Positions 1 through 16,075 are shown, numbered from the stretch's first letter. The stretch is 32,000 nt of DNA from Candidatus Saccharimonadota bacterium (GCA_022843095.1 JALHOH010000001.1:90001-122000), one strand, 5' to 3'. A program made the numbers and translations. The notes: generated from the letters alone by a model not told the origin.

Positions 1-44
1 GCCGTGCAAGCTAACCGTTCGCAAGTTGTTTTCCTCTTTCGTAC

Positions 45-72
45 CGAGCGAGGTCGAGGAATATCTCGCTCG
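45..72 (-). other. Perfect 8-bp stem hairpin just downstream of the helicase stop; the loop contains TCGAGGAA
   Basis: CGAGCGAG (45-52) pairs with CTCGCTCG (65-72). No U-tract follows on the minus strand, so this is not a canonical intrinsic terminator. Confidence 0.5.
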
Positions 73-79
73 TGTGCGC

Positions 80-3000
80 TTAGCGTTTCTTCTTCATCGA
101 AGAAAGAAACGCTGTGACCGCATCCGCCGAAGCGGGTGCGGTCGAGTTCTTTGCCTCCGGCGCCGGCGCTTTTGGCGCGGGCGAGGGCGGAACGGGCTTC
201 GGCGCCGCTTTCGACGGCTCCGAAACCACGCTTACTTCCATCGGGATGATCTCACGACCATCCCGGTAGAAGATCACGGGGTAGATCATAGCGGGCTTCT
301 GGGTATCCCCATAAGCCCAGCCAATCGCCCACACCCCGTCGGTGAGCGTCGTGGGAAGGATCACCGTCCCCTCCCAGTTGACGTTCCCCTTCCAGGACAA
401 ATCACGGACGGTGATCCGAAGCCCTGGAACGGTTTCGATCCAGAAGCGTTCCTTTCGCCGCTCATCGAGCGACTCCAGGCGGGATTCGGCGGCGCCCTTC
501 GCGGGAAACACCTCGAACCCCTCGGCTTTTTTGCCGCTGCTTACGTAGACGCGGCCAGCGTCCACGAGCAGAAAGATCTGTCCTTGCGGAAGCGATTGGA
601 TCTTCTCCAAGATCGTGTCGCGTCGCGCAAAGGCCTCTTGCTGCGCCCTCGCCTCTTCGGCTTTCTTATCAGCCAAAGATTTGAGTGCCGCTACCGCCTC
701 GCCAAGAAGCGCATTGGCCTCCTGCGTCCAGGTCTGGAGGTCTTCCAGTCCGGACGGCAGGTACTCGTAACGCTTGCTGTCGACGCGCGAACGGAGGTCG
801 CCGTCCAGATCGTACCAACCCTCGCGGGACTGGACGCTCCGGAGCGACTCCTGCGCTGCCTCGGCCATGGCCTTGGTCTCGTCGAACTGCTTCTGCTTGA
901 TCGCCTCCTCGCGGATGCTCTCGAGCTTGGCAGCCGACTTCGCACGCGCGGCATTGGCCTCCTCGCGAACCTGGAACCACTTGCCCTCGAACCAGGGGTC
1001 CGAGGAGTAGTACCGGTAGTCCTTGAGGTCGACCGCGCCAAAGGCGACGAGTGACGTTCCGTCGATGACCGAGATGCCGTACCGGCATTCGATGATCTCC
1101 GGAACGACCGACGTCGGATCGGCGGGGTCCGGCAGCCCGATGGCCGGACGGCCTTCGGTCGGCCAGTTGTCCCAGAGGCACTTGTTCGCGCGGCTCACGC
1201 AGCGCGTCTTGAGCTCCGGGATGTCCCGGCCGCTGACGGTGTCGTAGTAGCCGAAGGGCACTACGACTTCCACCACGCGACCTCCCGGGAGCTTGACCCC
1301 CGCGTCCGGCAGCTCGCGCCAGCCGTGCGCGGTGATCGTGTCTCGATCGAGCGTAATCCGCGGGGTGTGACCCTCACGGTACTCGACCCGGAACGTCCGA
1401 CCGATCACCGTGATCTCGTCGGGGTTCTCGCCCATGACGAGCTCGACCAATTCCGCGTCGGGCGCGGGTGGCTCGAGCGCTGCAGGGTCAACGACCTCTG
1501 CCATTCGCCGAGCGCCACAAAGACACTTCTTCAGATAGGCGCCGACCTCCTCCGGACTCATCACCGTGAAGATCGTCTCGCCAGCACGCGTGTTGAGCGC
1601 GCGAGCTTCAGTCTGCGCGTAGCGCGGTTGTGCCGCGAGCCACGCGCAGAAGATGTTTGCCGCCTCGACGTGCTCGGGATCGGCGACCGCCTCCTCCTTG
1701 ATCTTCTGCCCGTTGAAGAACGTCTCGGTGGTCGAAACCACGGAGTCCTTCGCCGAGTCGAAGTACGGGCGGAGACCGGTCTTCCGCTCCACGAGCTGCG
1801 GGGCGACGTCGGCGAGCAGCTGCGGATCGACCGCCGTGGCCATCGAGACGAGGCGCAGGGTCACGAGACGACCCCGACGATCCTTGATCTGGATGTCCTT
1901 CGGTAGGCCGACGAGCCACTCGGGACCGCCGCGCACGACCGACTCACGCGCGAGCTCGCGCTCGACCGGCGAACCGTTGATGTACCGGCCGTACTGGCTC
2001 CGGTACAAATGATCCACCATGCCGGCGACACAGGCCTTCAGGATGGCCTGCCGCTCTTCCTCCTTCGAAGCGAACTTCTTGGAGTCGGAGCGAACCTCGC
2101 TGCGCGTCGCGTCCAGGAGCTTCCGGCGGAGTTCGTCCGCGCGGAAGAAATCCTTGACGAAGATGCCCGCCTCACGGAGGGCCTCCGCCTTGGACTGTCC
2201 GTTCCGACCCTTCATCTCCTTGCCCTTCTCGAACACGTCGAGGGTGGCGAGGAGGTCGGATTTGGACTCCTGGGTGAGCGACCGCCACTGGCCTTCGCGG
2301 CCGCGGATGTCGCCGGCCTCGAGGCATCCAGCGATGGTCGCCACCTGCTCGACCACGCCGTGACGCTCCGCCTCGATCAACATGCGAGCGTACTCGCACG
2401 AGACCGAGAAGCGCGCCATGCGACGGCCGATCTTGGTGACGTTCCCCTCGCCGGACATGGCACCGAGCGCCACGAGCGCGCGACGGGCGTCGACCAGCGT
2501 GTCCTTGTCCGGCTGGTGAAAGAACTCCAACGCCGTGGCATCAAAGCCTTGCACTGCCAGACGCAGAACCATCTGGTCGAGACGCGAACGGAGCACCTCG
2601 GCGAGCGGGAACGGGCGGCGATCGTTCATCCCGATGTCGGATGCCAGGACGTAAATCCCTGGCTTGGTCCGACCGGCGCGCCCGGCGCGCTGCGCGGCGT
2701 CGGCTTGGGAAATGGGCTTGAGGTAGAGTCCCTCGATCCCATCCGCCAGCTCGACACGCCTCTCGATCCCGCTGTCGACGACGGCGTCGATGTCGGGGAT
2801 GGTGACCGACGTCTGAGCGACGTTGGTGGCCACCACCACCTTCACCTTACCGTTCGGCGCGGGCGCGAACGCGCGCTGCTGATCGCCGGGCTCCATGTCG
2901 CCATGGAGCGGGAGGACGAGGGCAGTCGTCCCCAGCTGGGTTTCAAGAGCGGAGACGCTTTCGCTAATCTCCTTCTTACCCGGCTGGAAGACGAGGACGT

Positions 3001-3634
3001 TCCTCCCCTCCTTGGCGAGCTTCACCGCCTCGGCGATCAAATCGCGCGAGGAGGCCGCCCGCTTCTCGACGGGGAACAAACGCCCGGGGACCGAAATCAC
3101 CGGTACGCCCTCGCCATAGAAGGCGGACAGCTTCTCGGCCTCGAGCGTGGCACTCATGAGCACCACCTTGAGGTCGTCGCCAGCGCTGATGCGGGACTTC
3201 ACCCACGCCACGAGGACCTCGACGTTGAGGTTCCACTCGTGGACTTCGTCGAGGACGAGAACGGTCTTGCGACCCGTCCCGCCCTGACCGGCGAGCTCGC
3301 GGACGAGCTGCAACCCGTCCGTGACGAACAAGATCTCGGTTGCAGCCGAATCCGAACGCTCCTCGGCGGTCCGGAAGCCGACGCGGTCGCCCAACCGCGT
3401 TCCCATTTCCTGGGCCACGCGCTGGGCGAGCGCGCGGGCGGCGAGCCGACGGGGCTGGGTGCAGATCACCCGGTACCCGGCAGATGCGAGCATCTGCGGC
3501 ACCTGGGTGCTCTTACCAGCACCGGTCTCGGCGGTGATGATGGTCACCGCCGCCCCGCTCACAGTCTTCAGGATCTCATCCTTGAATCCGATCACGGGTA
3601 GGCTCGAACCGTTGCTACCGTTTCCATTCTTCAT
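80..3634 (-). CDS. DEAH/RHA-family (HrpA-like) ATP-dependent RNA helicase with ~600-aa uncharacterised C-terminal extension
   Basis: The translation carries the full motif set: GETGAGKSTQ (I), TQPRRLAA (Ia), DEVHE (II), SAT (III), TNVAQTSVTI (V), QRAGRAGR (VI). The track ORF runs to 3766, but I place the start at ATG 3634 (MKNGNG...), which is preceded by GGAGA 5 nt upstream. The C-terminal half has coiled-coil-like and Pro/Ala-rich segments with no motif I recognise. Confidence 0.9.
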   Translation of the reverse strand: MKNGNGSNGSSLPVIGFKDEILKTVSGAAVTIITAETGAGKSTQVPQMLASAGYRVICTQPRRLAARALAQRVAQEMGTRLGDRVGFRTAEERSDSAATEILFVTDGLQLVRELAGQGGTGRKTVLVLDEVHEWNLNVEVLVAWVKSRISAGDDLKVVLMSATLEAEKLSAFYGEGVPVISVPGRLFPVEKRAASSRDLIAEAVKLAKEGRNVLVFQPGKKEISESVSALETQLGTTALVLPLHGDMEPGDQQRAFAPAPNGKVKVVVATNVAQTSVTIPDIDAVVDSGIERRVELADGIEGLYLKPISQADAAQRAGRAGRTKPGIYVLASDIGMNDRRPFPLAEVLRSRLDQMVLRLAVQGFDATALEFFHQPDKDTLVDARRALVALGAMSGEGNVTKIGRRMARFSVSCEYARMLIEAERHGVVEQVATIAGCLEAGDIRGREGQWRSLTQESKSDLLATLDVFEKGKEMKGRNGQSKAEALREAGIFVKDFFRADELRRKLLDATRSEVRSDSKKFASKEEERQAILKACVAGMVDHLYRSQYGRYINGSPVERELARESVVRGGPEWLVGLPKDIQIKDRRGRLVTLRLVSMATAVDPQLLADVAPQLVERKTGLRPYFDSAKDSVVSTTETFFNGQKIKEEAVADPEHVEAANIFCAWLAAQPRYAQTEARALNTRAGETIFTVMSPEEVGAYLKKCLCGARRMAEVVDPAALEPPAPDAELVELVMGENPDEITVIGRTFRVEYREGHTPRITLDRDTITAHGWRELPDAGVKLPGGRVVEVVVPFGYYDTVSGRDIPELKTRCVSRANKCLWDNWPTEGRPAIGLPDPADPTSVVPEIIECRYGISVIDGTSLVAFGAVDLKDYRYYSSDPWFEGKWFQVREEANAARAKSAAKLESIREEAIKQKQFDETKAMAEAAQESLRSVQSREGWYDLDGDLRSRVDSKRYEYLPSGLEDLQTWTQEANALLGEAVAALKSLADKKAEEARAQQEAFARRDTILEKIQSLPQGQIFLLVDAGRVYVSSGKKAEGFEVFPAKGAAESRLESLDERRKERFWIETVPGLRITVRDLSWKGNVNWEGTVILPTTLTDGVWAIGWAYGDTQKPAMIYPVIFYRDGREIIPMEVSVVSEPSKAAPKPVPPSPAPKAPAPEAKNSTAPASADAVTAFLSSMKKKR

Positions 3635-3870
3635 GATGTCTCCTCGAGCCAGGGGTGCCTTGCGGCTATTCCCACCCTGCTCGGCCAGCTTTTCAAGGCT
3701 GACTTCCTTTCGGCTTTTTGGCCTACAGGCATGCGGGCAGGGAGGCCCGGGAGTTCTATCACTCACGTAGACAGAAACACGTCTCTCTCCTCGAGAGAAG
3801 AAAATCGAGACCGACTCTCTTCTCGCGACGAAATCCTCAATCCGAGGCCGAACCCTGCGTTCGACATCAA

Positions 3871-3923
3871 ATCGAGGAACCCACCATCGCTTGTGCAGGG
3901 CGTTGGTGGGTCTTCGAGTGCAG
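3871..3923. repeat. Intergenic hairpin motif, copy A
   Basis: atcgaggaa, then stem cccaccatcgc (3880-3890), loop ttGTGCAgg, stem gcgttggtggg (3900-3910), then tcttcgagtgcag. The stem has 10 of 11 positions paired. Confidence 0.7.
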
Positions 3924-4202
3924 TGGTTACGCCACTATCCGGCTCGTACACGAGCGTGTCCCGGGGATCAGTCGGGATTGTTCGGCTGGGGATCGCGTTT
4001 CCAGCCGTTTGGGCTCTGATGCTTTGTCGGGGGATGCCTCCGACTCGTCATCTCAAGGGGAGCCCTTGGCAGAAATGTTGCGTAGTCCGCTATGGACACG
4101 CGCATCTGCCGCTCTCCAACTCCGGTTACATCATCTTCTCGACGATGTGGAGCTGTCCCGGTTCACGCCGGTGCGTTTTGCGGCATCCGCTATGCGAGCG
4201 AC

Positions 4203-4709
4203 TCAGCCGACCTTCGCCCACTCGAGACCGAGCTCGAGAGCCTTCGCCGCAGACACCTTGGTGCCGTGCGGAAAGTCTCTCGTCTCAATCCGAGAGGGCA
4301 TGATCGGCTCGCCGGGGAAGAAGGTCCAAACGACCTCCTTCCCGCTCGCGCGGTCGGGTCCGAGGAGGAGGACAGTGAAGTCCACCTCCGGACCGAGGAC
4401 TCCCTCGACCACCGCCTCCACGTTTCCCGTGGACTTGGGGTCAGAGAGGGTCACCTCCGTCTGCGGAACAAGTTCCACGAGACGAAGGAGACCGAATCGC
4501 CCTCGGATCGGAGCCCGAAACCCGCACGCCGACGACGAAATCGCCGGATGCGAGTACTCCTCCCACGCCACGCTCTGAAGATCTTTCAGAGTCGTAGCAG
4601 CGAGGAACCGCGAGCCTGCACCACCGCCCGGCTGACGCTGCGCAAGGCAGCTAGCCAGGTACGATGGATCGGTCGCGGCGAATGCCGCCAGAATGCGCTC
4701 GTGCGTCAT
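4203..4709 (-). CDS. Hypothetical protein (168 aa), no recognisable motif
   Basis: The ORF is on the same strand as its neighbours and its composition is protein-like. It has an ATG start and no strong SD. The plus-strand ORFs that overlap it look like high-GC artefacts. Confidence 0.6.
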   Translation of the reverse strand: MTHERILAAFAATDPSYLASCLAQRQPGGGAGSRFLAATTLKDLQSVAWEEYSHPAISSSACGFRAPIRGRFGLLRLVELVPQTEVTLSDPKSTGNVEAVVEGVLGPEVDFTVLLLGPDRASGKEVVWTFFPGEPIMPSRIETRDFPHGTKVSAAKALELGLEWAKVG

Positions 4710-4885
4710 TCTGGTTTCTTGCGCTGTATATTCTCCGAGCTTCCCCGGATATTCTTAGCGCAAGCCATTCAAGGCCACTTCACTTCGTTTTGTCATTGGC
4801 ACCATGCCGCAGATCAAAACGAAGTTCATCGCTCCTCGATGCGACATCCCATTATTCCTCCCCGGAGGAACGAATGAGATGGCAG

Positions 4886-4936
4886 ATCAAGGATCCCACC
4901 GCAGCCGTGCAAGCGCTGGTGGGTCTTCGAGTGCAG
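4886..4936. repeat. Intergenic hairpin motif, copy B
   Basis: atcaaggat, then cccac-cg-cagc, loop cGTGCAagc, gctg-gtggg, then tcttcgagtgcag. The 3' flank tcttcgagtgcagt is identical to copy A. It starts about 9 nt after the NTase stop codon. Confidence 0.7.
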
Positions 4937-4944
4937 TTGTAGGC

Positions 4945-5457
4945 TCACTTCACGAGGCCACCAGCGATTGCTCGCCGCTCGACCTCGGATCGCGTTTCCG
5001 ACTTGAAGGCTTTGTAGGCCTTCTTGTCGGAGCGAAGTTCCAGCTTGCGCCGACGGACTTCCGCAAGCTCGTTCTCGGTCAGAACGAGCCGATAGAACCG
5101 CGCCCAACCCACGTAAGCGCGATTCCTGAGACACCCCTCGACGTCGAGAGGAAGGACGAGCTCGGGGTGGTTGAGCTTGCCCTCGATCATGACCCCTTGG
5201 CTTTCACCGTGGGGCCAGTCGCCGACCGGAATCACCTTGCGAAAGGCGAGACCGGTGACCTGTTCGATCCGAGAGCGCAGCGACTCGCTCATCGGATTTT
5301 CGGTGAGGAAGCGGACATCGACGTCGATGCAGTCCGCGCCCTCCAGGATAAACAGACCGGAAATGAGGGATCCTCCGAGGATCACCTCGACCTCCGTGCC
5401 CAGCGCATCCTGCCACTGAGCCATGAGACCTTCGACGACCTTGAGGATTTGATCCAC
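4945..5457 (-). CDS. Minimal Pol-beta-superfamily nucleotidyltransferase (170 aa)
   Basis: ILGGSLISGLFILEGADCIDVDVRF matches the hG[GS]-x(9-13)-DxD pattern. A third acidic strand follows at LPLDVEG. The start is GTG at 5457, preceded by AAGGAGG 5 nt upstream. Confidence 0.75.
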   Translation of the reverse strand: MDQILKVVEGLMAQWQDALGTEVEVILGGSLISGLFILEGADCIDVDVRFLTENPMSESLRSRIEQVTGLAFRKVIPVGDWPHGESQGVMIEGKLNHPELVLPLDVEGCLRNRAYVGWARFYRLVLTENELAEVRRRKLELRSDKKAYKAFKSETRSEVERRAIAGGLVK

Positions 5458-5528
5458 GGCCGCCTCCTTCTTTGAATTTTTTTATCGCAGAATGTTTTTC
5501 AAGGAGCTGCGATATCTCCTTTGGCAGA

Positions 5529-6110
5529 CTACTCCCCGCGGTTTGCCATTCCTGCGAGAATCTCGGCGAGCGCCTTGATGGTCGGACGATCTGCGACCGG
5601 TTCGCCGCGCTCCAAATGGTGCACGGATCCCCTGTGGACGCCATCCTCACCGAGCTGAGGGACGTCGTCCGTCTGGCCGTGGTAGTCGCTGTGGATCTCG
5701 GCCAGAACCTTGATCCCCAACTTCTCGCAGAACGCCCTCCACTCCGGAAAGCGGCTCACGTCCCCTGCGAGAAGGACGGCGTGAGTGGCGGTCGAGCAGA
5801 TCTGCTCGTTCTCCGCCGAAGGAATCCCGCCAATGTCTACCACGACCAGCGGGAGCGCAACTTTCTTCACCGAATCCGTTATGCGCTTCACGAACTCGGG
5901 GGTGAACTTCGACTTGTAGGCGGCCTTGAGTTCAGCCGCCGTCTGGGGATCGACGTTCACCGTCTCCTGGAACCACGCGCCCTCCCCATCGGGGCACGCG
6001 GTGATCACGTACGGATACGGCGCGCCAGGAATGCGCCGCACCGCGTCCTTTAAGCCCTGCCTCATGCAGGACTTCCCCGAACGCGGGGGACCGCAGAGTA
6101 CGACTTTCAT
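5529..6110 (-). CDS. Small P-loop NTPase (193 aa)
   Basis: Walker A is GPPRSGKS and Walker B is LPLVVVDIGG. I chose ATG 6110 (MKVVLCG...) because a strong AAGGAGG lies upstream. The 12 nt upstream of the start (ggccgcctcctt on the plus strand, 6111-6122) are identical to those upstream of the NTase gene (5458-5469). Confidence 0.8.
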   Translation of the reverse strand: MKVVLCGPPRSGKSCMRQGLKDAVRRIPGAPYPYVITACPDGEGAWFQETVNVDPQTAAELKAAYKSKFTPEFVKRITDSVKKVALPLVVVDIGGIPSAENEQICSTATHAVLLAGDVSRFPEWRAFCEKLGIKVLAEIHSDYHGQTDDVPQLGEDGVHRGSVHHLERGEPVADRPTIKALAEILAGMANRGE

Positions 6111-6219
6111 GGCCGCCTCCTTGTGAGGAACTATCCACGTACTGCTTCTCGGAATATCCGAGATTATCAGTAGCGATTTCCTTCCTCGATTGAAGCTCCG
6201 ATCCATGATCAGAAGTTCG

Positions 6220-6270
6220 ATCGAGGACCCCACATAGCTTTTGTGCAAAAGCGACATGGGGCTCGAGTGC
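6220..6270. repeat. Intergenic hairpin motif, copy D
   Basis: atcgaggac, then outer stem cccca/tgggg, inner stem gctttt/aaaagc, GTGC at the loop apex, then ctcgagtgc. Confidence 0.65.
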
Positions 6271-6366
6271 TTGCCAGAAGCCGTCTGGCAACGGACCCGT
6301 CGTTTTCTAGAGCCGGGATTTCGCTCAAACTCGGAGATCAATCCGAGGAATTTCTGCAAAGGGTGA

Positions 6367-6705
6367 TCAGCCCTCGAGCACCTCCGCCGCCGGGATCAGG
6401 GATCCGACCGTCCGCTCGGGGTCGTGCGACACCGCGACGACGTAGGCCGCCATCTTCGGATCGAAGCAGGCGACCGCACCGAAGCGGTGGGCCACGGCGT
6501 GCCCGATCGCGATCGCGACGGGGAGCGAGGCGGGGCCGTTGAGGAGGCAGAGCTTGCCCCCCTCGAGACCCAACGCCTCGACGCTGGCGACCGCGTCCTT
6601 GACGATCGCATCGTTCTGCGCGGGAGCGCCGAACGAGAGCGTGAGAAGGCAGGCGGGGACGGAGGCAACGGTGCGGGCGGCGAACTTCACGTTGTAGGTC
6701 GTCAT
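6367..6705 (-). CDS. Csx3/Crn3-like protein (112 aa), putative cyclic-oligoadenylate ring nuclease / RNA deadenylase fold
   Basis: Start is ATG 6705 (MTTYNVKF...) with AAGGAGA upstream. The segment LLNGPASLPVAIAIGHAVAHRFGAVACFDPKMAAYVVAVSHD resembles, from my memory of Archaeoglobus Csx3, the core ...GRGPIWL..AH....VAVYDPRLGAVVVQSHS. The size of ~100 aa fits the family. The coding call is firmer than the family call. Confidence 0.6.
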   Translation of the reverse strand: MTTYNVKFAARTVASVPACLLTLSFGAPAQNDAIVKDAVASVEALGLEGGKLCLLNGPASLPVAIAIGHAVAHRFGAVACFDPKMAAYVVAVSHDPERTVGSLIPAAEVLEG

Positions 6706-7153
6706 GATGGTTTTTCTCCTTTTGGGGAGATGGGGCGAACTTGTGAGAGAACCGTAACTCTCACTCCCGTTATTTTGTCGCTTAGCCCGATACGTCGGAG
6801 CCACGTTCATATCTCTTCCCCACCTCTCGATGGAGCTATCGACCCTGGATACCCGGGCCGGAGGGTATTCGGGATGCATTCGGATTGCCGACGTTCTTCA
6901 CGCGGCTACGAACACATCCCACGGCACCTTCACCGTTGTTCATCCCGCACAGGCATCATCCTCTCCTCGAGGTCATGTCTGTGCATGTGAGCGCCATCGG
7001 CAGGAGTCGCACCTGCTCGCATCCCTGGAACCCGTCTGAGGGGCCGCGCATCTCGCGCGCTTCTGTTGTCCAGGCGATGGCACGTTCGGGTTTCCCCGAT
7101 CTGAAGCCCTGACGTAAGCCCCGCAATAGATGATGTGGGTGTCAGGAATTCGG

Positions 7154-7190
7154 ATCGGATGCCAACGTGTGCATGTTGGCTCCGAGTGCA
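7154..7190. repeat. Intergenic hairpin motif, copy C (short-stem variant)
   Basis: atcggat, then stem gccaac, loop gtGTGCAt, stem gttggc, then tccgagtgca. After that, tttgtaggct parallels copy B gttgtaggct. The stem sequence differs from A and B but still pairs, which is covariation. Confidence 0.65.
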
Positions 7191-7267
7191 TTTGTAGGCT
7201 TCCCCCACTCCCTCTTGCGAGGACTACGGTGTGGTTTTTGTACGGGTAGCCACGCCCGGGATGGTGG

Positions 7268-7687
7268 TCAGTTCGTGTAGAACGTCGTGGACCTGCCCAT
7301 CCAGCAGACCACCACCTGGCGACCGTTGCGCCGCACCACCGCGCTCTTCGGGAGGCTGTTCGACTTGAATGCCTCCTTCAAAGCTTCGGTCGCGAGCGCC
7401 TGCTCGCCCTTCTTCTCGTCCGCTGCCTTCACCGCTGCTACGCGCGCAGCCTCCTTCTGCCGCGATGCCTTGTGACATGAGCGACAGACCTTGGCGTTCG
7501 GTACGGCGGATGGAGCGATGAACTTCGCACCGCAGGCACAGGTGATCACAGGGCGGGCGTTGGCGTTGGTGTTGGTGTTCACTTTTTTCTCCGCTGGTTT
7601 CTCTAGCCAGCGGCCTTTTGTGGCGTCATGGTCCAGCGAAATTGCTGGAGGACATGGCGCCCGACGGAACAGGACGAATTCCTTCAT
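7268..7687 (-). CDS. Hypothetical zinc-ribbon-like protein (139 aa)
   Basis: CxC...CxxC arrangement in VITCACGAKF...KVCRSCH, followed by a Lys/Ala-rich helix. There is no clear SD, and high GC makes spurious ORFs likely, so confidence is moderate. Confidence 0.45.
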   Translation of the reverse strand: MKEFVLFRRAPCPPAISLDHDATKGRWLEKPAEKKVNTNTNANARPVITCACGAKFIAPSAVPNAKVCRSCHKASRQKEAARVAAVKAADEKKGEQALATEALKEAFKSNSLPKSAVVRRNGRQVVVCWMGRSTTFYTN

Positions 7688-8039
7688 CCGTTTTCGTCGT
7701 TTAGTTGTCGAAGAGCGTGGGAGGAACCCCCGTTCCTTCCCTCATCGCGTGTAGTAGCGACTGCAGGATGTTCGACCCTTGGAAGGGTCCAACTCCCGCG
7801 CACTCGTTACTACGAATCCTCTCTGTAGGATTCGAGAGCCACCACGATCTGTTTGCCGTACCGCGATGTAACTCGCGGTTTTGGTATGCCGTCCGTGGCC
7901 TCTCCGATATCAGTTCGGAGCAGTTCAGAGATGTGGCTGATTGCCTTAGGGCAGGATCTCTCTCCTTGGTGATCGCGCGAGGGCGACCATCATCCCCTAA
8001 AACCATCAGCATCACAGAAGTGAAAAGGTGCGTTTTGCC

Positions 8040-8094
8040 AAAAAGCGGCAAAGATCGAGGATCCACTGTGGAGAGAATCATCGATCTTTGCCGC
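8040..8094 (-). terminator. Strong hairpin terminator (14-bp perfect inverted repeat plus T5) reading on the minus strand
   Basis: gcggcaaagatcga (8045-8058) pairs with tcgatctttgccgc (8081-8094). The 22-nt loop has an internal tcca/tgga pairing. On the minus strand the hairpin is followed by TTTTTGG. Confidence 0.65.
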
Positions 8095-8097
8095 TAT

Positions 8098-8212
8098 CTA
8101 GTAGGATGTCGTACTCGGCTCTCTCTTTCCGAGGACGACGGGCTGTTGGAGTTCAAGGTTCGTAACCGGCTCTGTTTCTTCTGGCTCGTTCCGGTCTTTC
8201 ATCTTCACAACA
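8098..8212 (-). CDS. Candidate 34-codon small ORF (MKDRNEPEETEPVTNLELQQPVVLGKREPSTTSY), or a non-coding small RNA
   Basis: It sits exactly between a near-consensus promoter and the 14-bp hairpin terminator. The TAG stop lies 3 nt before the hairpin. There is no SD and the leader is about 6 nt. It is below the length cutoff of the ORF track. Confidence 0.35.
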
Positions 8213-8224
8213 GTATCATACCAT

Positions 8225-8253
8225 GTCTTTCAATTTTTGTCAAGCGTACGTAG
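8225..8253 (-). promoter_or_regulatory. Sigma70-type promoter: TTGACA, 17 nt, TATGAT, with TGg extended -10
   Basis: The reverse complement reads cgcTTGACAaaaattgaaagacatggTATGATactgttgtgaagATG. Confidence 0.6.
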
Positions 8254-8301
8254 TCATTTTTCTAGTTTTTATCTATTTTTAGTATATTTTTTGTATAGTT
8301 T

Positions 8302-8330
8302 TTGTCAGAATAATTTTGGCATGGTATACT
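8302..8330 (+). promoter_or_regulatory. Sigma70-type promoter: TTGTCA, 17 nt, TATACT, with TGg extended -10; predicts a leaderless mRNA
   Basis: TTGTCA at 8302-8307 and TATACT at 8325-8330. The ATG at 8337 lies 7 nt after the -10, at the expected transcription start site. Confidence 0.6.
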
Positions 8331-8336
8331 AATCTT

Positions 8337-9167
8337 ATGAAAAACACCTCTCAAAACCACACGCATCCCGCCACCCCCCTTCTGCAAGAACTCGGCCTCC
8401 ATGAGCAGGAGGCGGCTCTCTATCTCCTCTTATTGACCCAAGGACCCCAAAAAGCGCGGGATCTGACGGCCGCGATCGGGATTGGACGTGGAAATGTCTA
8501 TAACTATCTGATGATGCTCGTGCAAAAGGGGCTCGTTTCCGCGATTGAGGGCAAGCAAACACGGTATGAAGCGGCGGATCCGGCGAAATTGGAACAACTG
8601 TTGGCGCAAAAGAAGCAGGGAATTTCCCATTTGGAAGGGATGTTTCAGCAACTTCTTCCGACACTGACCTCCGCGTTCAACCTTTCTACCGGAAAACCGA
8701 CCGTCCAGGTGTATGAGGGGGTGGATGGATACAAACTCGCGCTTCAGGATGTCCTGACCAGCAAAACAGATATTTTGACCTATATTGATGCCGACGCGCT
8801 CACGGGTCCGCTCGCAACGATCGACGCCTGGTTTACGAAAGAACGTGAACGCCGTGGCATTCGCCAACGCATCCTTGTGGCGGACACTCCGGGGTTACGA
8901 CAGGCGTTTTCTGAAAAGACCGCAGGGGTTGAGGTTCGGTTCCTTAAAAACTTCGCCAATGCCTATCGGGGGGCCATGGAACTCTACGATCACCGCATCG
9001 CGTACTTCTCGCTGACCGCTGGAAAATCCATCGCCTTTATCATTCAGGAGCAGACGATGTACGAGCTACACCGTCAGCAATTTGAGTTTCTTTGGACGAC
9101 CGCATCTCCGCAGACGATGACAGAGGAACCGACGCCTGCTGTTCCGGCTCAAAAACGATATACCTAA
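8337..9167 (+). CDS. TrmB-family transcriptional regulator
   Basis: The N-terminal winged HTH (LGLHEQEAALYLLLLTQGPQKARDLTAAIGIGRGNVYNYLMMLVQKGLVSAIEGKQTRYEAADP) follows the typical TrmB pattern, and a C-terminal effector-like domain follows. The track start at 8316 is TTG; I prefer ATG 8337. Confidence 0.8.
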   Translation: MKNTSQNHTHPATPLLQELGLHEQEAALYLLLLTQGPQKARDLTAAIGIGRGNVYNYLMMLVQKGLVSAIEGKQTRYEAADPAKLEQLLAQKKQGISHLEGMFQQLLPTLTSAFNLSTGKPTVQVYEGVDGYKLALQDVLTSKTDILTYIDADALTGPLATIDAWFTKERERRGIRQRILVADTPGLRQAFSEKTAGVEVRFLKNFANAYRGAMELYDHRIAYFSLTAGKSIAFIIQEQTMYELHRQQFEFLWTTASPQTMTEEPTPAVPAQKRYT

Positions 9168-11148
9168 GCGGTCTCCCCGCTTCTCGATCGATCAGGTACC
9201 GCGTCATCACCATCCCCGGATACCGCCGAAACGCCTCACGCATCCGCGCCTCAAGCGCCGGACCCGTTTCGTGCAGGACTTCCACACGGATGCCGTTTGG
9301 CGCACCGGATGCCGTCCAACTGCGCACGACCTGCAGCGTAATCTCCTTTGCTCGTGATCCGTACCGACGCTGGTCATCCCGTCGCATCGAAACCCATGCA
9401 TGCGTCTTTCCATTTGGGAGACGCTCTTCTTCAAATCCCGTCCCCACAAAACCCATTTTCTCCAAATAAAACGCCCCGACATCGCTGTCTGGATAAAATT
9501 CACCCAACACCACTTTTTCTTTGGCAAACTGATCCACGGACGCACGTAACATCGCCTCACCGATGCCCGACCCTTGAATCACTTCATCCGTATTAAAAAA
9601 ATCTCCGCGTACGGCCTTCTGCCCCGCATGCTCGACCGTATCAAACCGCACAAATCCCAAAACCTTCTCCTGTTTCGTCAACAAAAGAAACTCGTGTGGG
9701 GTATTTGTCCCATGCGGAAGCAACTCCGACCGGGCTTGATCAACCGCCGCTGGACGAAGGTGCTTCCAGTTCCGCTCAAGCAAAAACAGCATCTGACGAC
9801 GTTCGTCATCGGATAATTCTTCCGTCCCCTTCCGGACCAACCGCACGCCATGAAGCCATTCCAGCGATCCTTCCACGTTTCCCAATTTTGCCGCCTTAAA
9901 CACCGAAGCTAGTACCAACACATCTTTCGAATGCCGCTCGAGTCCGCGCAAAACCGCCTCCGCATCCGCCTGACGTTCGTGTGAGATTTCGGTAGCCGTT
10001 TCCAAAATACGGAATGCGCGATCCATCAATTCAGAGGTAACCGTCGCAGGATCCATCTTCTTCATCTCGGCATGCGAAACACTGGACCAAAGCGCCTCCG
10101 CTGAGACATCCGCAACACTCCGAATCTCCTCCATACGCTTCAGCACGGTTCGCATCATCGGGACACCTATTTCCTTCGAAAGCGAAAGGATGGACAACGC
10201 GTTTCCCCCACGCTCCTGAAGCGCAAGCAACAGCTTGATCCCCGGAAGTTGGAACGTTTTTGCGTACCCTCGTACTTCATCCTGCATTTCGGGTGACAGG
10301 GTTGGAAACCATTCAGCAAACCGGCGCTGATCTGCAACGGGGAGCGCACGCAACGAATACCCAACCGCCCCCTCAAACACCTGCAACCGCTTCATCCAAT
10401 CCTGCGTCTGCTCCTGGGAAGAAGAAAACGCCATTCGCTCTTCTTCGGTCGCCGGTTTCCGTTCGATGAGTTGCGGACCCGCGTAGCCACGAGTTCCTTG
10501 TGATCCATATTTTACCTGCGACAATCGCGGATCGTCTTTCGACAGAATCTGAAACGTATACGCAAGTTCTTGTTTTCCCTGTTCAGAAAGCTGAAAAATC
10601 CCGCCTACCCCAGGTCGCAGTTCAACGATCTGGACCTCCTTGCCATGCAGATCCTTTCCCAAATAATGGATCACCCCGCCAAGCATCACCTGGCCACGCG
10701 ATCCCACCGCCATACGCGTCTTACGCTTGTCTTCTGCGGTTGGGGATCCGCTGGTAAGCGATGACGAAAAATCTTCAGGGCGAAGCAACCCTCGCGCCAC
10801 CAATTCTCTGCCATGGGTGGAAAGATACGCATGCGGCTGATCGATACGAAGCGCCTTCTGTTCCGGATCGGAGGCGTCACGGATCTGCCCCAAAAACCCC
10901 CATTCATGAAAAAACCGTGTGGAGATCGGTTGCCGATCCGTGGCACCCGGATAACGAACCAACAACTTGCCCTGTTGATCTCGAATTGCGTCACCAAACT
11001 TCGGATGATACACGAGCGCCGTGAACGCGGTTTCATGAAAACTCGTCCCACACTCGGGATACCGAAGCGTACCCCCTCCGTACTGCAAGCCGAACAATTC
11101 CCAGTACCCCAAATAAAAATCCGCTTTCTTCACCACCTCAGGATTCAA
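9040..11148 (-). CDS. Large hypothetical protein (702 aa) with a C-terminal GNAT acetyltransferase-like domain
   Basis: GNAT motif A-like VIQGSGIGEAMLRASVDQFA. The N-terminal ~500 aa has no motif I recognise. TTG start at 11148 with AAAGGAAGAGG upstream. The 3' end overlaps the TrmB gene by 128 nt. Confidence 0.8.
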   Translation of the reverse strand: MNPEVVKKADFYLGYWELFGLQYGGGTLRYPECGTSFHETAFTALVYHPKFGDAIRDQQGKLLVRYPGATDRQPISTRFFHEWGFLGQIRDASDPEQKALRIDQPHAYLSTHGRELVARGLLRPEDFSSSLTSGSPTAEDKRKTRMAVGSRGQVMLGGVIHYLGKDLHGKEVQIVELRPGVGGIFQLSEQGKQELAYTFQILSKDDPRLSQVKYGSQGTRGYAGPQLIERKPATEEERMAFSSSQEQTQDWMKRLQVFEGAVGYSLRALPVADQRRFAEWFPTLSPEMQDEVRGYAKTFQLPGIKLLLALQERGGNALSILSLSKEIGVPMMRTVLKRMEEIRSVADVSAEALWSSVSHAEMKKMDPATVTSELMDRAFRILETATEISHERQADAEAVLRGLERHSKDVLVLASVFKAAKLGNVEGSLEWLHGVRLVRKGTEELSDDERRQMLFLLERNWKHLRPAAVDQARSELLPHGTNTPHEFLLLTKQEKVLGFVRFDTVEHAGQKAVRGDFFNTDEVIQGSGIGEAMLRASVDQFAKEKVVLGEFYPDSDVGAFYLEKMGFVGTGFEEERLPNGKTHAWVSMRRDDQRRYGSRAKEITLQVVRSWTASGAPNGIRVEVLHETGPALEARMREAFRRYPGMVMTRYLIDREAGRPLRYIVFEPEQQASVPLSSSAEMRSSKETQIADGVARTSSAPE

Positions 11149-11731: not shown

Positions 11732-12043
11732 TTACGGCACCACGACCGCTTTATACGCCTCCAATCCTCCGCGGAGTGAGAACGTCTGCTCGTATCCGAC
11801 GAACGCCAATCGTTGACACGCCTCACGGGAACGTCGTCCGGACCGACAGAACGTCACGATGGGTGTTTTGTGATCCGGCACCACGCGCTCGATGCGATTC
11901 AATAGCCCCTCCAACGGAACGTGCAGGGCACCGGGAATGGTCCCTCCCTCAAATTCATCGATATCGCGGACATCGATGAGGATCGCGCGATCCAGTGGCG
12001 GAACGCGCGCAAGCCAGTCTTCGACGCTTATTTCTTGCATCAT
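11732..12043 (-). CDS. Single-domain rhodanese-like sulfurtransferase
   Basis: Active-site loop CRSGRRS, with the typical LIDVRxxxEF and G-I-PGA context. Confidence 0.85.
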   Translation of the reverse strand: MMQEISVEDWLARVPPLDRAILIDVRDIDEFEGGTIPGALHVPLEGLLNRIERVVPDHKTPIVTFCRSGRRSREACQRLAFVGYEQTFSLRGGLEAYKAVVVP

Positions 12044-12231: not shown

Positions 12232-12649
12232 TCTTGATGCACAGCATTCTGCGCCCCAAGATCGACAGCCCAACCGTGTGAATCCGAATGTTGTATGTGC
12301 AAGGCAGGACACATCCCACTTGCGTTTGACCGTGTCACAAGGACACTTTGGCGTATTGCTCGCCATCCGATCTGGATGGCCGAAGCATCGGACGATTAGT
12401 ATGGCTCGGCTAAAGGCCTCACGGCCCGTACACCTACCACCTATCAACCTCCTGGTCTCGGAGGGTCCTAAACGAAGACTAATCTTGAAGACGGCTTCAC
12501 GCTTAGATGCTTTCAGCGTTTATCCGTGCCGAGCGGTAGCTACCCTGCGGTGCCCTTGGTAGGACAGCAGGCGCACTAGAGGCTCGTGATTCCCGGTCCT
12601 CTCGTACTAAGGAATCGCCTTCTCAATCTTCCACGCGCACAGTAGACAG

Positions 12650-12745
<96 letters not shown>

Positions 12746-13309
12746 CGATGGGCCGACATCGAGGTGCCAAACCTGGTCGTCGCTGTGGACGCTCGGACCA
12801 GATCAGCCTGTTATCCCCGGAGTAGCTTTTATCCGTTGAGCTTCCGCCGTCCGATATCGTACGGTCGGATCACTATGTCCTGCTTTCGCATCTGCTCGAC
12901 TTGTTGGTCTTGCAGTGAAGCCGGCTTATCCCATTGCGGAATCGGCGCGATTTCCATCCGCGCCTAGCCGACCTTTGTGAACGCCTCCGTTACCATTTGG
13001 GAGGCAACCGCCCCAGTTAAACTACCCACCAGATCCTGTCTCCCAAGCCGGATTCACGGCTCGAGATTAGAGTAACGAAAGGGGAAGGGTGGTGTCTCAT
13101 CGGCGCCTTGCGGCTCCCACCTACACTGAACATCCCAATCCGGTACCCAAGATCAAGTTGTAGTAAAGCTTCACGGGGTCTTTTCGTCTGACTGCGCGTA
13201 CAGGGCATCTTCACCCCACTTGCAATTTCACCGAGTCCCACGTTGAGACAGTCGCAAACTCGTTATGCCATTCGTGCGGGACGGAACTCACCCGTCAAGG
13301 AATTTCGCT

Positions 13310-13556
13310 CTTCGTTTCCTTTCTGACGAAGGACCATCTCTTCATCCATGTTTCCATGGAGCATGACGTATGGCCTCTGAGGGATCCGACGAATCGGACT
13401 TCCCTGCTGATATTTCCGTAGCGAGTAACTCTACGGCTCTTCCCAGCAAATAGTCATGTATGTTTTAGGACCAGTTCTGTATTGCTACAAAACGAGGCAG
13501 CTCTTCCATCCATAATCGTCCCAGTCCTTCGCCAACCCTTCGAAAAGAGTCGGCGA
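13310..13556 (-). ncRNA. Group-I-like intron (247 nt, no ORF) inserted after the E. coli U1931 equivalent of 23S rRNA
   Basis: It interrupts the universally conserved CCUAAGGU|AGCGAAAUUCC. The upstream exon ends in U and the insert ends in G. The insert has R/S-like core elements: CUCAGAGGCCAUA and AAGAGAUGGUCC form a 6-bp P7, and a CCAUG-GAAA-CAUGG hairpin (P8) lies between them. There is also a UCCGA-UUCG-UCGGA hairpin. An IGS-like tract pairs with the upstream exon, including a U-1/G wobble. Confidence 0.75.
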
Positions 13557-14392
13557 ACCTTAGGACGATTATAGTTATCGCCGGCGTTCATCAGCGCTTA
13601 GATTCAAGGCTGCCGGGTTACCCCATGACCTCTCCTCGTGACGTTCTGACACTGGCCAGGCATCACTCCCTATACCTCACCTTGCGGTTTCGCAGGGAGC
13701 TGTGTTTTTGGTAAACAGTCGGTTTGCGTCTTTCGCTGCGGCCCAGCTTGCGCTGGGCAGGCCTTATCCCTAGGTTACGGCCGTTGTATTGCCGAGTTCC
13801 TAAACGCGGGTTCTCTCGTACACCTTGGCACACGTATGCCCACTCACCTGTGTCGGTTTCCGGTACGGTTTCCATGTGCTTAGCCCTAGAAGCTTTTCTC
13901 GGCACCGCAGTCCCAACCCTTGCTCCCCTTTCGGGAAACTCGCGATCGCCCCGAGGCTTATGACCGGCGGATTTGCCTACCAGTCACCCCTGAGCGCCCA
14001 AAGGTTCAATCCAAGAACCTCGATCAGTTGAACGATGCGTCACTCCATCGGAAACACACGGAAGTGCAGGAATATTAACCTGCTGGCCATCGGCTACGCA
14101 TTTCTGCCTCGCCTTAGGACCGACTAACCCAGGGACGATTCTCGTAGCCCTGGAAACCTTGAGTTTATGGTGGACAGGATTCTCACCTGTCTTTTTGCTA
14201 CTTATGCCGACATTCTCACTTCTCTCCGCTCCACGGTGGCTCACGCCTTCCGCTTCAGCGCAAAGAGAACGCTCCCCTACCAGTACATGATTCCGAAGAA
14301 TCATCGTAATCCGCGACTTCGGTACCGCCCTTAAGCCCCGGTAAGTTTTCGGTGCCGAGCAGCTTGACCAGTGAGCTGTTACGCTTTCTTTA

Positions 14393-14430
<38 letters not shown>

Positions 14431-15005
14431 AGCCGCCCGACCTCCTTTGACACTGAGGACGGATTTAGGGACCTTAATCTGCGGTCAAGGGCTGTTTCCC
14501 TTTTGTCCATTGGAGCTTAGCCCCCAAGGACTGACTGCTGGGAACACACACACGGCATTCGGAGTTTGGTTAGAAACTGTAAGCTTGCGCCCCAGTTCCC
14601 ATTCAGTGCTCTACCTCCGCGGTGTTATGGACCAGCGCTAGACCAAAATCTATTTCGGGGAGAACCAGCTATCACCCATCTCGATTGGAATTTCACCGCT
14701 ATCCACACCTCATCCCCGAGTGTCGCACGGCTCGTGGGTTCGGACCTCCATCCACCTTTCGGTGGACTTCATCCTGGGCATGGATAGATCGACGGGTTTC
14801 GGGTCTTGTGGATGCTACGAACGCCCTATTCAGGCTCGCTTTCACTATGGCTTCGCCCCCGCAGGGACTTAACCGAGCAACATCCAGCAAACTCGTCGGC
14901 TCATTCTTCAATAGGAACGCTGTGACGGACTTGCGCCCGCTCCAGCTCTCTTGTAAGCGTACGGTTTCAGATACTGTTTCATCGCCCTCCCGGGCTACTT
15001 TTAAG

Positions 15006-15038
<33 letters not shown>

Positions 15039-15339
15039 GTCAGCGTATTTAGCCTTGGCACATCGTCGTGCCTGCTTCCGGCGGGGTTTCTCGGGCCCCG
15101 TCGTACTATGGATCACACACAGGATGAGACGTCATCTTTCGTCTACCGGGCTATCACCGTCTTTGGCCCCGCTTTCCATCGGGTTCAACTAGAATCATCT
15201 TCTTTCCTTGCTGCACTTGGGAGCAGCATGTTTGTGTCCCTACAACCCCCCTATGACGAAAGCCCAAGCTCGCCCTCCTGCCCGCGGTAAAACTTGCGTC
15301 CTACTCGGTGCAAAAGTTGATCATAAAGGTTTTGGCTCG

Positions 15340-15370
<31 letters not shown>

Positions 15371-15429
15371 ATGCAGGCTTCTTGTCTCGCCCTGACCATT
15401 GCTGATCAAGAGAGACAAGAAGTCTGCGT
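15371..15429 (-). other. ~55-nt expansion hairpin in 23S domain I
   Basis: A 16-bp stem pairs gcaggcttcttgtctc (15373-15388) with gagacaagaagtctgc (15412-15427) with one non-Watson-Crick position. It lies between the conserved GAAACAUCUnAGUA and AGUAGCGGCGAGCGAA blocks, where E. coli has only a few nucleotides. Confidence 0.7.
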
Positions 15430-16075
15430 CGTTTTTCTCTTTTCCTCTAGGTACTGAGATGTTTCACTTCCCTAGGTTCCCTCCTGCCACCTATGTATTC
15501 AGTGGTTCAGGTCTGCAGAGTTCATCTGCAGGGGTTTCCCCATTCGGACATCTCCGGATCAAAGGTTGCTTGCCACCTCCCCGAAGCTTATCGCAGGCTG
15601 CTACGTCCTTCATCGGCGCTGTACTGCCTAGCCATCCACCGTACGCCCTTACGTGCTTCGACCATCCAGATCCTGATCCTGAAGATCAGCACCGGTTGGT
15701 TCGAGCCACCAAGGTGTCTTTGTGTACGTTACATTATTGCAAGTAGATGTGCATGCCTTGCACATACTACATTCTGATTCTCTGAAGATCTTTTCAGACC
15801 TTCAAAAGTTTACTCTGCAATTTTCGATGATCGACCCATCCCGTTTTCTGCCCAAGTGGCAGTGGTCGTGAGATGAGCAAAGAAGAACGTCGAGGTGCCT
15901 CGGCACTCTTCTTTGCGAATCTCTCTTTAGAACAAAAGGACTTGGCTACATGCCAAGTCGGAACTGGAGGTTCCTGCCCTGGCCATTCTCCTCACTTTGA
16001 ATGTGGCGGTGATCTCCATTGCTTCTCTTCGGCCAACCCGCCGGGGAGAAGGTGGTGCTCTCAATTTGTGCCCGC

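Follow-up and report, generated by a model that had tools for sequence, protein, structure and literature searches.

A stretch of 32,000 nucleotides from a Candidatus Saccharimonadota bacterium (GCA_022843095.1, JALHOH010000001.1:90001-122000; hereafter the window, meaning this whole stretch) raises the question of why the gaps between the genes of one small island should hold a family of similar hairpins, and what these hairpins might do. The island, which encodes a Csx3-domain protein and a P-loop nucleoside triphosphatase (NTPase), lies in bases 1 to ~8200, where the G+C content is 60-66% compared with ~55% in the remaining window and where all credible genes are on the minus strand. The original prediction had described four hairpins here, named A, B, D and C along the window, with conserved flanks, a conserved loop and variable but complementary stems. 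We show that the four are the 5′ halves of a tandem-hairpin element of ~75-106 nucleotides (nt), typically 91 nt, of which we found no description in Rfam or in the literature searched.

All four copies are present at the places predicted, or displaced from them by a few bases. Measured from the GCAC motif to the end of the basal helix (P1, see below), they occupy the following positions:

3872-3921: copy A (predicted at 3871-3923)
4887-4934: copy B (predicted at 4886-4936)
6221-6270: copy D (predicted at 6220-6270)
7155-7189: copy C (predicted at 7154-7190)

A composite pattern, GCACTCG-N10-24-TGCAC-N10-24-YCYYSRW, matches A, B and D and gave no match in 100 dinucleotide shuffles; the shorter stem of copy C is the only reason for its absence. 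By itself the 7-mer GCACTCG shows no enrichment (9 matches, with 6 ± 2.5 expected), so it is the composite pattern that counts. Copies A and B have a 28-nt block in common at 93% identity. The GTAGGCT stretch noted beyond copies B and C was found at 4939 and 7194, and corresponds in the mRNA sense to a common 18-mer, AGCCUACAA(C/A)UGCACUCG. A second short repeat that had been noted, CAATCCGAGG, is present at 3838, as part of the second hairpin of the unit at copy A, and at 6339, as part of another conserved hairpin (S2) just past the stop codon of the Csx3-domain gene.

MAFFT put the stems out of register and a covariance model was therefore seeded from one clean copy (R1), then rebuilt from five real matches (R2) and from ten (R3). 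Outside its seed R2 matched copy C and, among the compared sequences (given L numbers), L002a, L010, L009b and L002b. Further matches of R3 were in L001, L291 (three), L292, L294, L299 and L301, and untrained copies were recovered by R2 or R3 in 10+ other islands. In an alignment of 19 sequences (A7; an earlier covariation result used 10 sequences) 93.7% of the cells are paired, compared with 59.7% in column shuffles and 28-49% in slid registers. Compensatory double changes are found in all 12 pairs of the variable helix (P2), and the observed covariation score was attained in none of 500 shuffles. The stem sequences are plainly unrelated among copies and yet remain paired in both the folds and the alignments, as the original prediction had held, and its suggestion of a structured single-stranded element is borne out, the covariation being genuine.

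The strand on which the motif had been described was not, however, the one that folds. Although the hairpin can form on either strand in every copy, G·U pairs outnumber A·C mismatches by 15 to 3 in the mRNA sense, and in 18 of 21 units it is the sense strand that folds into the more stable structure (mean difference -6.1 kcal/mol, Wilcoxon p = 0.00085). It is therefore the minus strand that folds, which in this all-minus-strand operon is the mRNA sense, and the plus strand of the prediction is antisense. The element would thus be read within a long polycistronic mRNA of the minus strand. Every strong model match is carried by the gene-sense strand. This asymmetry contradicts the proposal that the elements are double-stranded DNA operators, with paired TCGAG half-sites, for the divergently encoded regulator of the TrmB family or for some other DNA-binding protein that would coordinate the cluster. 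In nearly all cases the TrmB-family gene is divergent from the island, and the palindrome TCGA does occur in the flanks, but the distance from the sites to the only promoter-like site reaches ~4.4 kb, and the half-sites are 20-35 bp apart with compensatory changes between them, which is the signature of a folded single strand. We give an operator next to no credence.

Each of the four hairpins proved to be followed by a second. From 5′ to 3′ a unit consists of a single-stranded (G/A)CAC, a box X (UCGRG), P2 with a (U)GCAC(A) loop on top, a box X′ (YCCUCGAU, UCCUCGAU), the inner part of the second hairpin (HP2, ~45 nt) and a box X2 (AUCGAGGA). X and X′ pair (UCGAG/CUCGA) to give P1, a short and weak basal helix, while X′ and X2 pair to give the base of HP2, which is the stronger. 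Since X′ serves both, P1 and the base of HP2 compete and are mutually exclusive. The conserved flanks of the prediction are real, and being complementary to each other they lengthen the helix. They are, however, the basal helix plus the start of the second hairpin, with the flank ATCGAGGA comprising the 3′ strand of P1 and the beginning of HP2. A long form with 32-35 nt between the flanks is seen in six copies, and a short form also exists. The units of the window, with their first hairpin (HP1) and second hairpin, are:

3834-3924, minus strand: unit A, between the genes for a 168-amino-acid (aa) protein and a helicase; GCAC and HP1 3872-3921 with loop CUGCACAA; HP2 3834-3878
4833-4937, minus strand: unit B; GCAC and HP1 4887-4934; HP2 of 61 nt, 4833-4893
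6183-6273, minus strand: unit D, in the spacer between the Csx3-domain and NTPase genes; GCAC and HP1 6221-6270; HP2 6183-6227
7096-7192, minus strand: unit C, in the leader that precedes the Csx3-domain gene; GCAC and short HP1 7155-7189; HP2 of 63 nt, 7096-7158

R3 matches units A (3865-3924), B (4880-4937) and D (6215-6273) with 62.2, 48.8 and 60.2 bits, respectively. Unit C scores 43.5 bits with R3 and 33.6 bits (E = 2e-6 in 802 kb) with R2, which was built without it. The folding energy of HP2 is -26.5 kcal/mol in unit A (z -6.1) and -30.9 kcal/mol in unit B (z -6.5), and the HP2 of unit D (z -5.2) was also detected as an inverted repeat. Unit B begins 10 nt past the stop codon of a nucleotidyltransferase-like (NTase-like) gene encoding 170 aa.

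HP2 is solid. When 110 nt of downstream sequence were included in the folds it came next in ~16 of 19 units, with z-scores of -4 to -9, beginning with X′ and ending with X2; it is usually 40-46 nt long, and 31 G·U pairs were counted in it. Cognate X′:X2 duplexes are more stable than non-cognate ones (-11.85 against -7.16 kcal/mol, permutation p < 0.0002), while for X:X′ the difference is smaller (-4.55 against -3.87 kcal/mol, permutation p = 0.012). Matched changes occur in all three boxes at once, with X, X′ and X2 reading CUCGGA, UCCGAUC and GAUCGG in copy C, GGAG, CUCC and GGAG in L010, and GGG(A), (U)CCC and GGG in L001 and L004. The 5′ GCAC has no systematic downstream RNA partner (mean z -0.1), and we rejected a long-range helix closing the unit through this flank. 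A pseudoknot between the 5′ UGCA and the loop UGCA was likewise discarded, as flank and loop change in parallel, not complementarily (CGCAC in L006). Nor are the hairpin regions coding, as overlapping open reading frames (ORFs) are conserved only where real genes overlap in another frame.

Three other structures of the gaps are:

6330-6348, minus strand: hairpin S2, CCUCGGA-UUGAUCU-CCGAG, just past the Csx3 stop codon
6310-6326, minus strand: hairpin S3, GAGC-GAAAUCCCG-GCUC, just past the Csx3 stop codon
1-27, minus strand: possible truncated fifth unit, AACUUG, a stem strand, UUGCAC and GGC, followed by the window edge

The S2/S3 region is 93% identical in L009 (6515-6586), and the stems covary in L001, L002 and L009 beneath the loops UUGAUYW (S2) and AAAUCC (S3). 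As the spacer holds S2 and S3 besides unit D, the gaps amount to composite structured RNAs rather than lone hairpins. In L001 the S2/S3 module (9741-9815 and 11885-11965) also stands behind a different gene. The possible fifth unit, ~50 nt past the helicase stop codon, has a loop and next three bases identical to those of copy B and AACUUG where other copies have GCACUCG; none of the covariance models reported it. A unit after the helicase gene is present in L004 (13145-13182).

The genes and signals among which the units stand are:

80-3634, minus strand: helicase, DEAH/HrpA-like by family scans; accessory gene
4203-4709, minus strand: gene of 168 aa with no family match; accessory gene
4945-5457, minus strand: NTase-like gene of 170 aa; accessory gene
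5529-6110, minus strand: P-loop NTPase of 193 aa, the 'AAA' half of Csx3-AAA; core gene
6367-6705, minus strand: Csx3-domain protein of 112 aa; core gene
7268-7687: zinc-ribbon ORF, doubtful and unconfirmed
8215-8243, minus strand: sigma-70-like promoter, TTGACA-17-TATGAT, 11 of 12 consensus bases
8316-9167, plus strand: TrmB-family regulator gene, divergent from the island

The site at 8215-8243 is the only promoter-like site on the operon strand. As a promoter scan found none in the inner gaps of the operon, the units are probably co-transcribed. The three accessory genes (the helicase, 168-aa and 170-aa genes) are separated from one another by units. The leader, ~115 nt downstream of the promoter-like site, also contains a 24-bp inverted repeat (8044-8095, 88% complementary, 4-nt loop) with a GATCGAGGATC-type sequence resembling boxes X′ and X2. 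An A+T-rich 11-nt tandem repeat of 3.9 copies (8263-8305), which may be a regulator binding site, lies in the promoter region from which the TrmB-family gene and the island diverge.

By their profile matches the 112-aa and 193-aa proteins show themselves to be the two halves of the type III CRISPR accessory protein Csx3-AAA. The former matches the PADLOC models Csx3-AAA (4.8e-15, profile positions 12-102) and Csx3 (CARF) (3.7e-12) and Pfam Cas_csx3 (8.6e-5), and the latter matches Csx3-AAA at 7e-58 over profile positions 108-285. Here the halves are separate genes with a 256-nt structured spacer between them. No CRISPR array was detected in the window by TRF, and apart from Csx3-AAA/Csx3 and a weak similarity of the helicase to Cas3, PADLOC matched no cas genes in the island. 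The AlphaFold2 model of the NTPase (predicted local distance difference test score, pLDDT, 90.7) resembles GPN-loop GTPases and MinD. Among solved folds the nearest, at template modelling scores (TM-scores) that are low throughout, are GPN-loop GTPases, MinD/Soj and SRP/Get3, and the protein models as a SIMIBI-class P-loop fold, not an AAA+ ATPase; such a fold says nothing on RNA binding. Its gene truly begins at 6110 and not at 6113. The 170-aa protein carries a GGS...DVDV motif, typical of minimal nucleotidyltransferases, but has no Pfam, NCBIfam or PADLOC match; its gene is kept beside that of the NTPase in L001, L291, L030 and L047. Outside the island, a 23S rRNA match on the minus strand (12376-15663) spans 3288 nt compared with 2925 nt in the model, indicating insertion(s) of ~360 nt, and a 23S_rRNA_IVP-family protein is encoded nearby in L001.

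The comparison with relatives covered 47 loci from species-representative genomes and several metagenome contigs. Homologues of the NTPase number 1111; the best 120 of these are 68-87% identical to it, and those named belong to Patescibacteria. The common layout is a divergent TrmB-family gene and promoter (also in L001, L002, L009, L291, L292 and L299), a leader of 0.9-1.7 kb, the Csx3 and NTPase genes, often the NTase-like gene, and then variable genes, with unusually long intergenic gaps (150-570 nt). Two gene orders occur, most other lineages having the inverse one. Common to the islands are only two proteins, the Csx3-domain protein and the NTPase, and the minimal island of L009 encodes just these, with an element in its leader and another behind the last gene. 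In two Acidobacteria loci (L045 1502-2313 and L046 6746-7608) the Csx3 and 'AAA' halves are adjacent or fused. Near the split Csx3/'AAA' loci no CRISPR-cas genes were seen. The islands are G+C-rich in A+T-rich hosts (for example L009 5000-7500 and L001 9400-13300), and the window and L009 have non-coding stretches that are 87-93% identical despite the different G+C content of the hosts. This would point either to lateral spread or to extreme constraint.

All model matches at E < 0.01 have the gene sense, and they lie no more than ~2 kb from the core genes save for one in L294, which is next to a second Csx3-like gene at ~6 kb from the core pair. Outside the islands there were none, either in the flanks of 50+ loci or in the 8.3-32 kb part of the window, the search space being ~0.87 Mb with both strands scanned, in agreement with the original prediction that the motif is tied to the cluster and not scattered. 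The Rfam comparison put forward with that prediction gave no island match at the gathering threshold and none even at E <= 5 (Rfam 15, window 1-8400, both strands, permissive filters), and the literature on Csx3 in Patescibacteria, on Csx3-AAA and on structured RNAs in CRISPR operons does not describe the element. A loose regular expression run on metagenome and viral contigs returned chance matches, with none of the 240 loci listed encoding an island protein, and in a tighter viral scan the 9 matches were likewise due to chance, lacking both the fold and island proteins. Among the matches listed in the loose search, the only sequence to fold like the motif is a perfect 14-bp hairpin in two IMG/VR contigs (L199 5607-5655 and L260 5320-5368; GCACUCGAG...CGCACU...CCCUCGA), which is probably coincidental, there being no Csx3 or NTPase genes nearby. 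Other repeated structures were noted in the islands. A ~200-nt intergenic module is duplicated behind two different genes in L001 (11885-12180 and 13040-13300) and includes a subtype-2 hairpin with loop ACUAGCACUCA. In L291 a small conserved hairpin followed by AAAACAAAGGAGGC stands before nearly every start codon (9040-9067, 9975-10000, 10835-10860 and 12600-12625) and looks like a repeated translation-initiation module.

This distribution bears on whether the units are a selfish repeat, of the repetitive extragenic palindromic (REP) and bacterial interspersed mosaic element (BIME) or miniature inverted-repeat transposable element (MITE) kind, that has spread through intergenic gaps. They are inverted-repeat units in extragenic positions, the TCGAGG core occurs three times per unit in alternating orientation, and A and B have their 28-nt block in common. 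Such a repeat should, however, have copies elsewhere, and none lies beyond the island in the window or in the flanks of 50+ loci; the element occupies orthologous positions in the islands of different Patescibacteria lineages, and no REP-associated tyrosine transposase (RAYT) or other transposase was seen among the island proteins with Pfam and NCBIfam. REP and BIME sequences also carry a conserved 5′ GTAG and have a cognate RAYT, whereas the conserved 5′ element here is GCAC-UCG. The stems are unrelated even within one island, which argues that the copies are old and under selection. A selfish origin appears very unlikely to us.

Scarcely better placed, and in our view still unlikely in a high degree, is the idea that the hairpins are single-stranded DNA recombination sites like the attC sites of integrons, marking cassette boundaries at which the accessory genes are gained and lost. 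There is a resemblance, with one imperfect hairpin per gene junction in a single orientation, conserved ends around a variable stem, and structure that is more conserved than sequence; gene content past the core varies among islands, units stand at most junctions, and intergenic modules are duplicated in L001. But the R″ (RYYYAAC) and R′ (GTTRRRY) boxes are missing, the flanks being CUCGAG/CCUCGA and the ends (G)CACUCGAG and YCCUCGAU in all aligned copies, and there is no IntI, attI or Pc. No integrase was found in the six island proteins (Pfam, NCBIfam, PADLOC) or in the island gene lists of L001, L002, L291, L294 and L299, and no recombinase is conserved in the islands, L292 alone having a phage-integrase-type gene nearby, outside the island. 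Where attC has a variable terminal structure the loop here is conserved, the long gaps hold further conserved hairpins, and the excess of G·U in the mRNA sense agrees with an RNA. The cassette boundaries that the prediction had offered are therefore, as far as integrons are meant, not supported.

As to what the units do in the mRNA, the reading that we favour, though tentatively and at somewhat short of an even chance, is that of an island-specific cis-acting RNA whose GCAC motifs are read by a trans factor and which acts as a P1/HP2 switch or as a processing site. In the alignment the stems are exchanged altogether, yet GCAC stays constant both in the loop and at the helix foot, which points to a trans factor that is specific for both sequence and shape. 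Since the element accompanies the island and was not found in the host flanks, the factor would most simply be island-encoded. A signal for processing, a terminator-like signal and a site recognised by a protein, all proposed in the prediction, are still live.

In a possible mechanism a trans factor, probably encoded in the island, would read the two GCAC motifs at the helix foot and in the loop, and its binding would stabilise P1 and P2 and open the base of HP2. This would free the purine-rich X2, which in several units could then pair with a pyrimidine stretch directly before the Shine-Dalgarno (SD) sequence of the next gene. The resulting chain of alternative pairings (X / X′ / X2 / anti-SD / SD) may adjust, separately for each copy on a single transcript, how the neighbouring cistrons are translated or cleaved or how stable they are. 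X2 is indeed purine-rich, as is the sequence just after it, a complementary pyrimidine stretch comes next in ~half of the units, and in W_D (the window's unit D), L002a, L291c, L301 and L294 this stretch abuts the next Shine-Dalgarno sequence. In unit D the candidate last link of the chain is:

6108-6131, minus strand: GUUCCUC (complementary to the 3′ end of the unit D HP2), ACAA, the Shine-Dalgarno sequence GGAGG and the NTPase AUG

Several points weigh against this proposal. The Shine-Dalgarno link is weak over 20 units (mean z -1.1), and it is impossible for units A (199 nt) and C (390 nt from the start codon) and for the L009 unit that follows the last gene. The spacing between units and flanking stop and start codons varies, and in the other gene-order clade some GCAC-loop hairpins have U-rich tails, like plain terminators. 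P1 is short and its covariation support modest (p = 0.012), and in vivo it might not form at all. The covariation counts come from model-fitted alignments, which favour the structure, and the island specificity is that seen in the window and the locus flanks. Processing or stabilisation of the upstream cistron is as plausible an output as the pairing chain; several units begin 4-10 nt past a stop codon.

The units could also be purely passive intercistronic hairpins, that is 3′-end stabilisers, RNase III-type processing sites or leaky U-less terminators, with no switch and no dedicated factor. We think this unlikely, though it deserves serious consideration. Units stand past stop codons, at 4-10 nt in L291 (two), L001 and window unit B and at 57-135 nt elsewhere; one follows the last gene of the L009 minimal island; two stable hairpins of ~17-20 bp would block 3′ exonucleases; and in L013 and L007 U-rich tracts come after related GCAC-loop hairpins. 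Mere stability does not, however, explain why GCAC is kept in the single-stranded flank and loop while the stems are replaced, which calls for sequence-specific recognition, nor the covariation of X, X′ and X2. If the units were a signal for a general host RNase or terminator, they ought to occur in the host flanks too, from which they are absent. The window copies have no U-tract, their tails being UCCUCGAUYGA, and none of the four units was called by a terminator scan.

If the units are indeed read by a trans factor, the prime suspect, and this is a guess, is the Csx3-domain protein. AfCsx3 has been described as a cOA4 ring nuclease. What makes the domain attractive here is that Csx3 proteins bind a four-nucleotide RNA ligand, cA4 in the case of the known family. 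One may speculate further that the Csx3 domain, otherwise known only for binding and cleaving cA4, has been re-used to read GCAC in its own mRNA, giving a self-contained, CRISPR-independent RNA-sensing circuit, or that the units are excised to become the RNA subunits of a ribonucleoprotein of Csx3, NTPase and helicase; either would be rather improbable.

The genomes of Patescibacteria are tiny and have little non-coding DNA, and yet this island devotes about a quarter of its length to conserved, covarying RNA structure. The motif has no Rfam family, is ready for modelling and comes from a phylum group with almost no characterised regulatory RNAs. It is linked to Csx3-AAA, for which we found no assigned function and which is here free of CRISPR and split in two genes by a structured spacer. 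Were Csx3 or the NTPase the trans factor, this would provide a first handle on the role of the module outside CRISPR and a new example of an operon-internal, protein-read RNA switch. Even as a stabiliser or processing site alone, the element would be a marker of operon architecture and mRNA processing in uncultured bacteria.

How, then, does the element compare with known systems? CRISPR repeats are near-identical and spaced by 25-75 nt, whereas the copies here are 0.9-1.3 kb apart with genes between them and different stems. The put RNAs of phage HK022 are likewise two adjacent stem-loops of similar total size inside a long operon, but put occurs once per operon, just after the promoter, and there is no sequence or Rfam similarity. 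The RNase III hairpins of the T7 early mRNAs and the enterobacterial REP/BIME stabilisers are ~20-bp hairpins between cistrons, just past stop codons, and the units could in the same way define and protect 3′ ends. Those hairpins are, however, phage- or genome-wide and not confined to one island, and they lack the conserved single-stranded GCAC and the tandem architecture with its shared strand. The closest parallels are with RNA targets of regulatory proteins: the ribonucleic antiterminator (RAT) hairpins bound by LicT, SacY and BglG, the dual hairpins recognised by the ANTAR protein EutV, and the PyrR sites of the pyr operon, whose regulators are encoded within or beside their locus. As in these systems, there are several copies in the leader and intercistronic gaps of one operon, the 3′ strand of a weak hairpin overlaps the 5′ arm of a stronger downstream one (~16 of 19 units here), and loop and flank nucleotides are conserved while the stems vary. 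There are also differences. In the window copies HP2 lacks a U-tract, Pfam and NCBIfam scans of the island proteins found no CAT/PRD, ANTAR or PyrR domain, and the UGCACA loop and 5′ GCAC match none of the RAT, ANTAR or PyrR consensus sequences. The element belongs to none of these families, nor to the processing hairpins; it is by analogy with the RAT, ANTAR and PyrR sites and with the intercistronic processing hairpins that we would ascribe to it a role as a switch or processing site.

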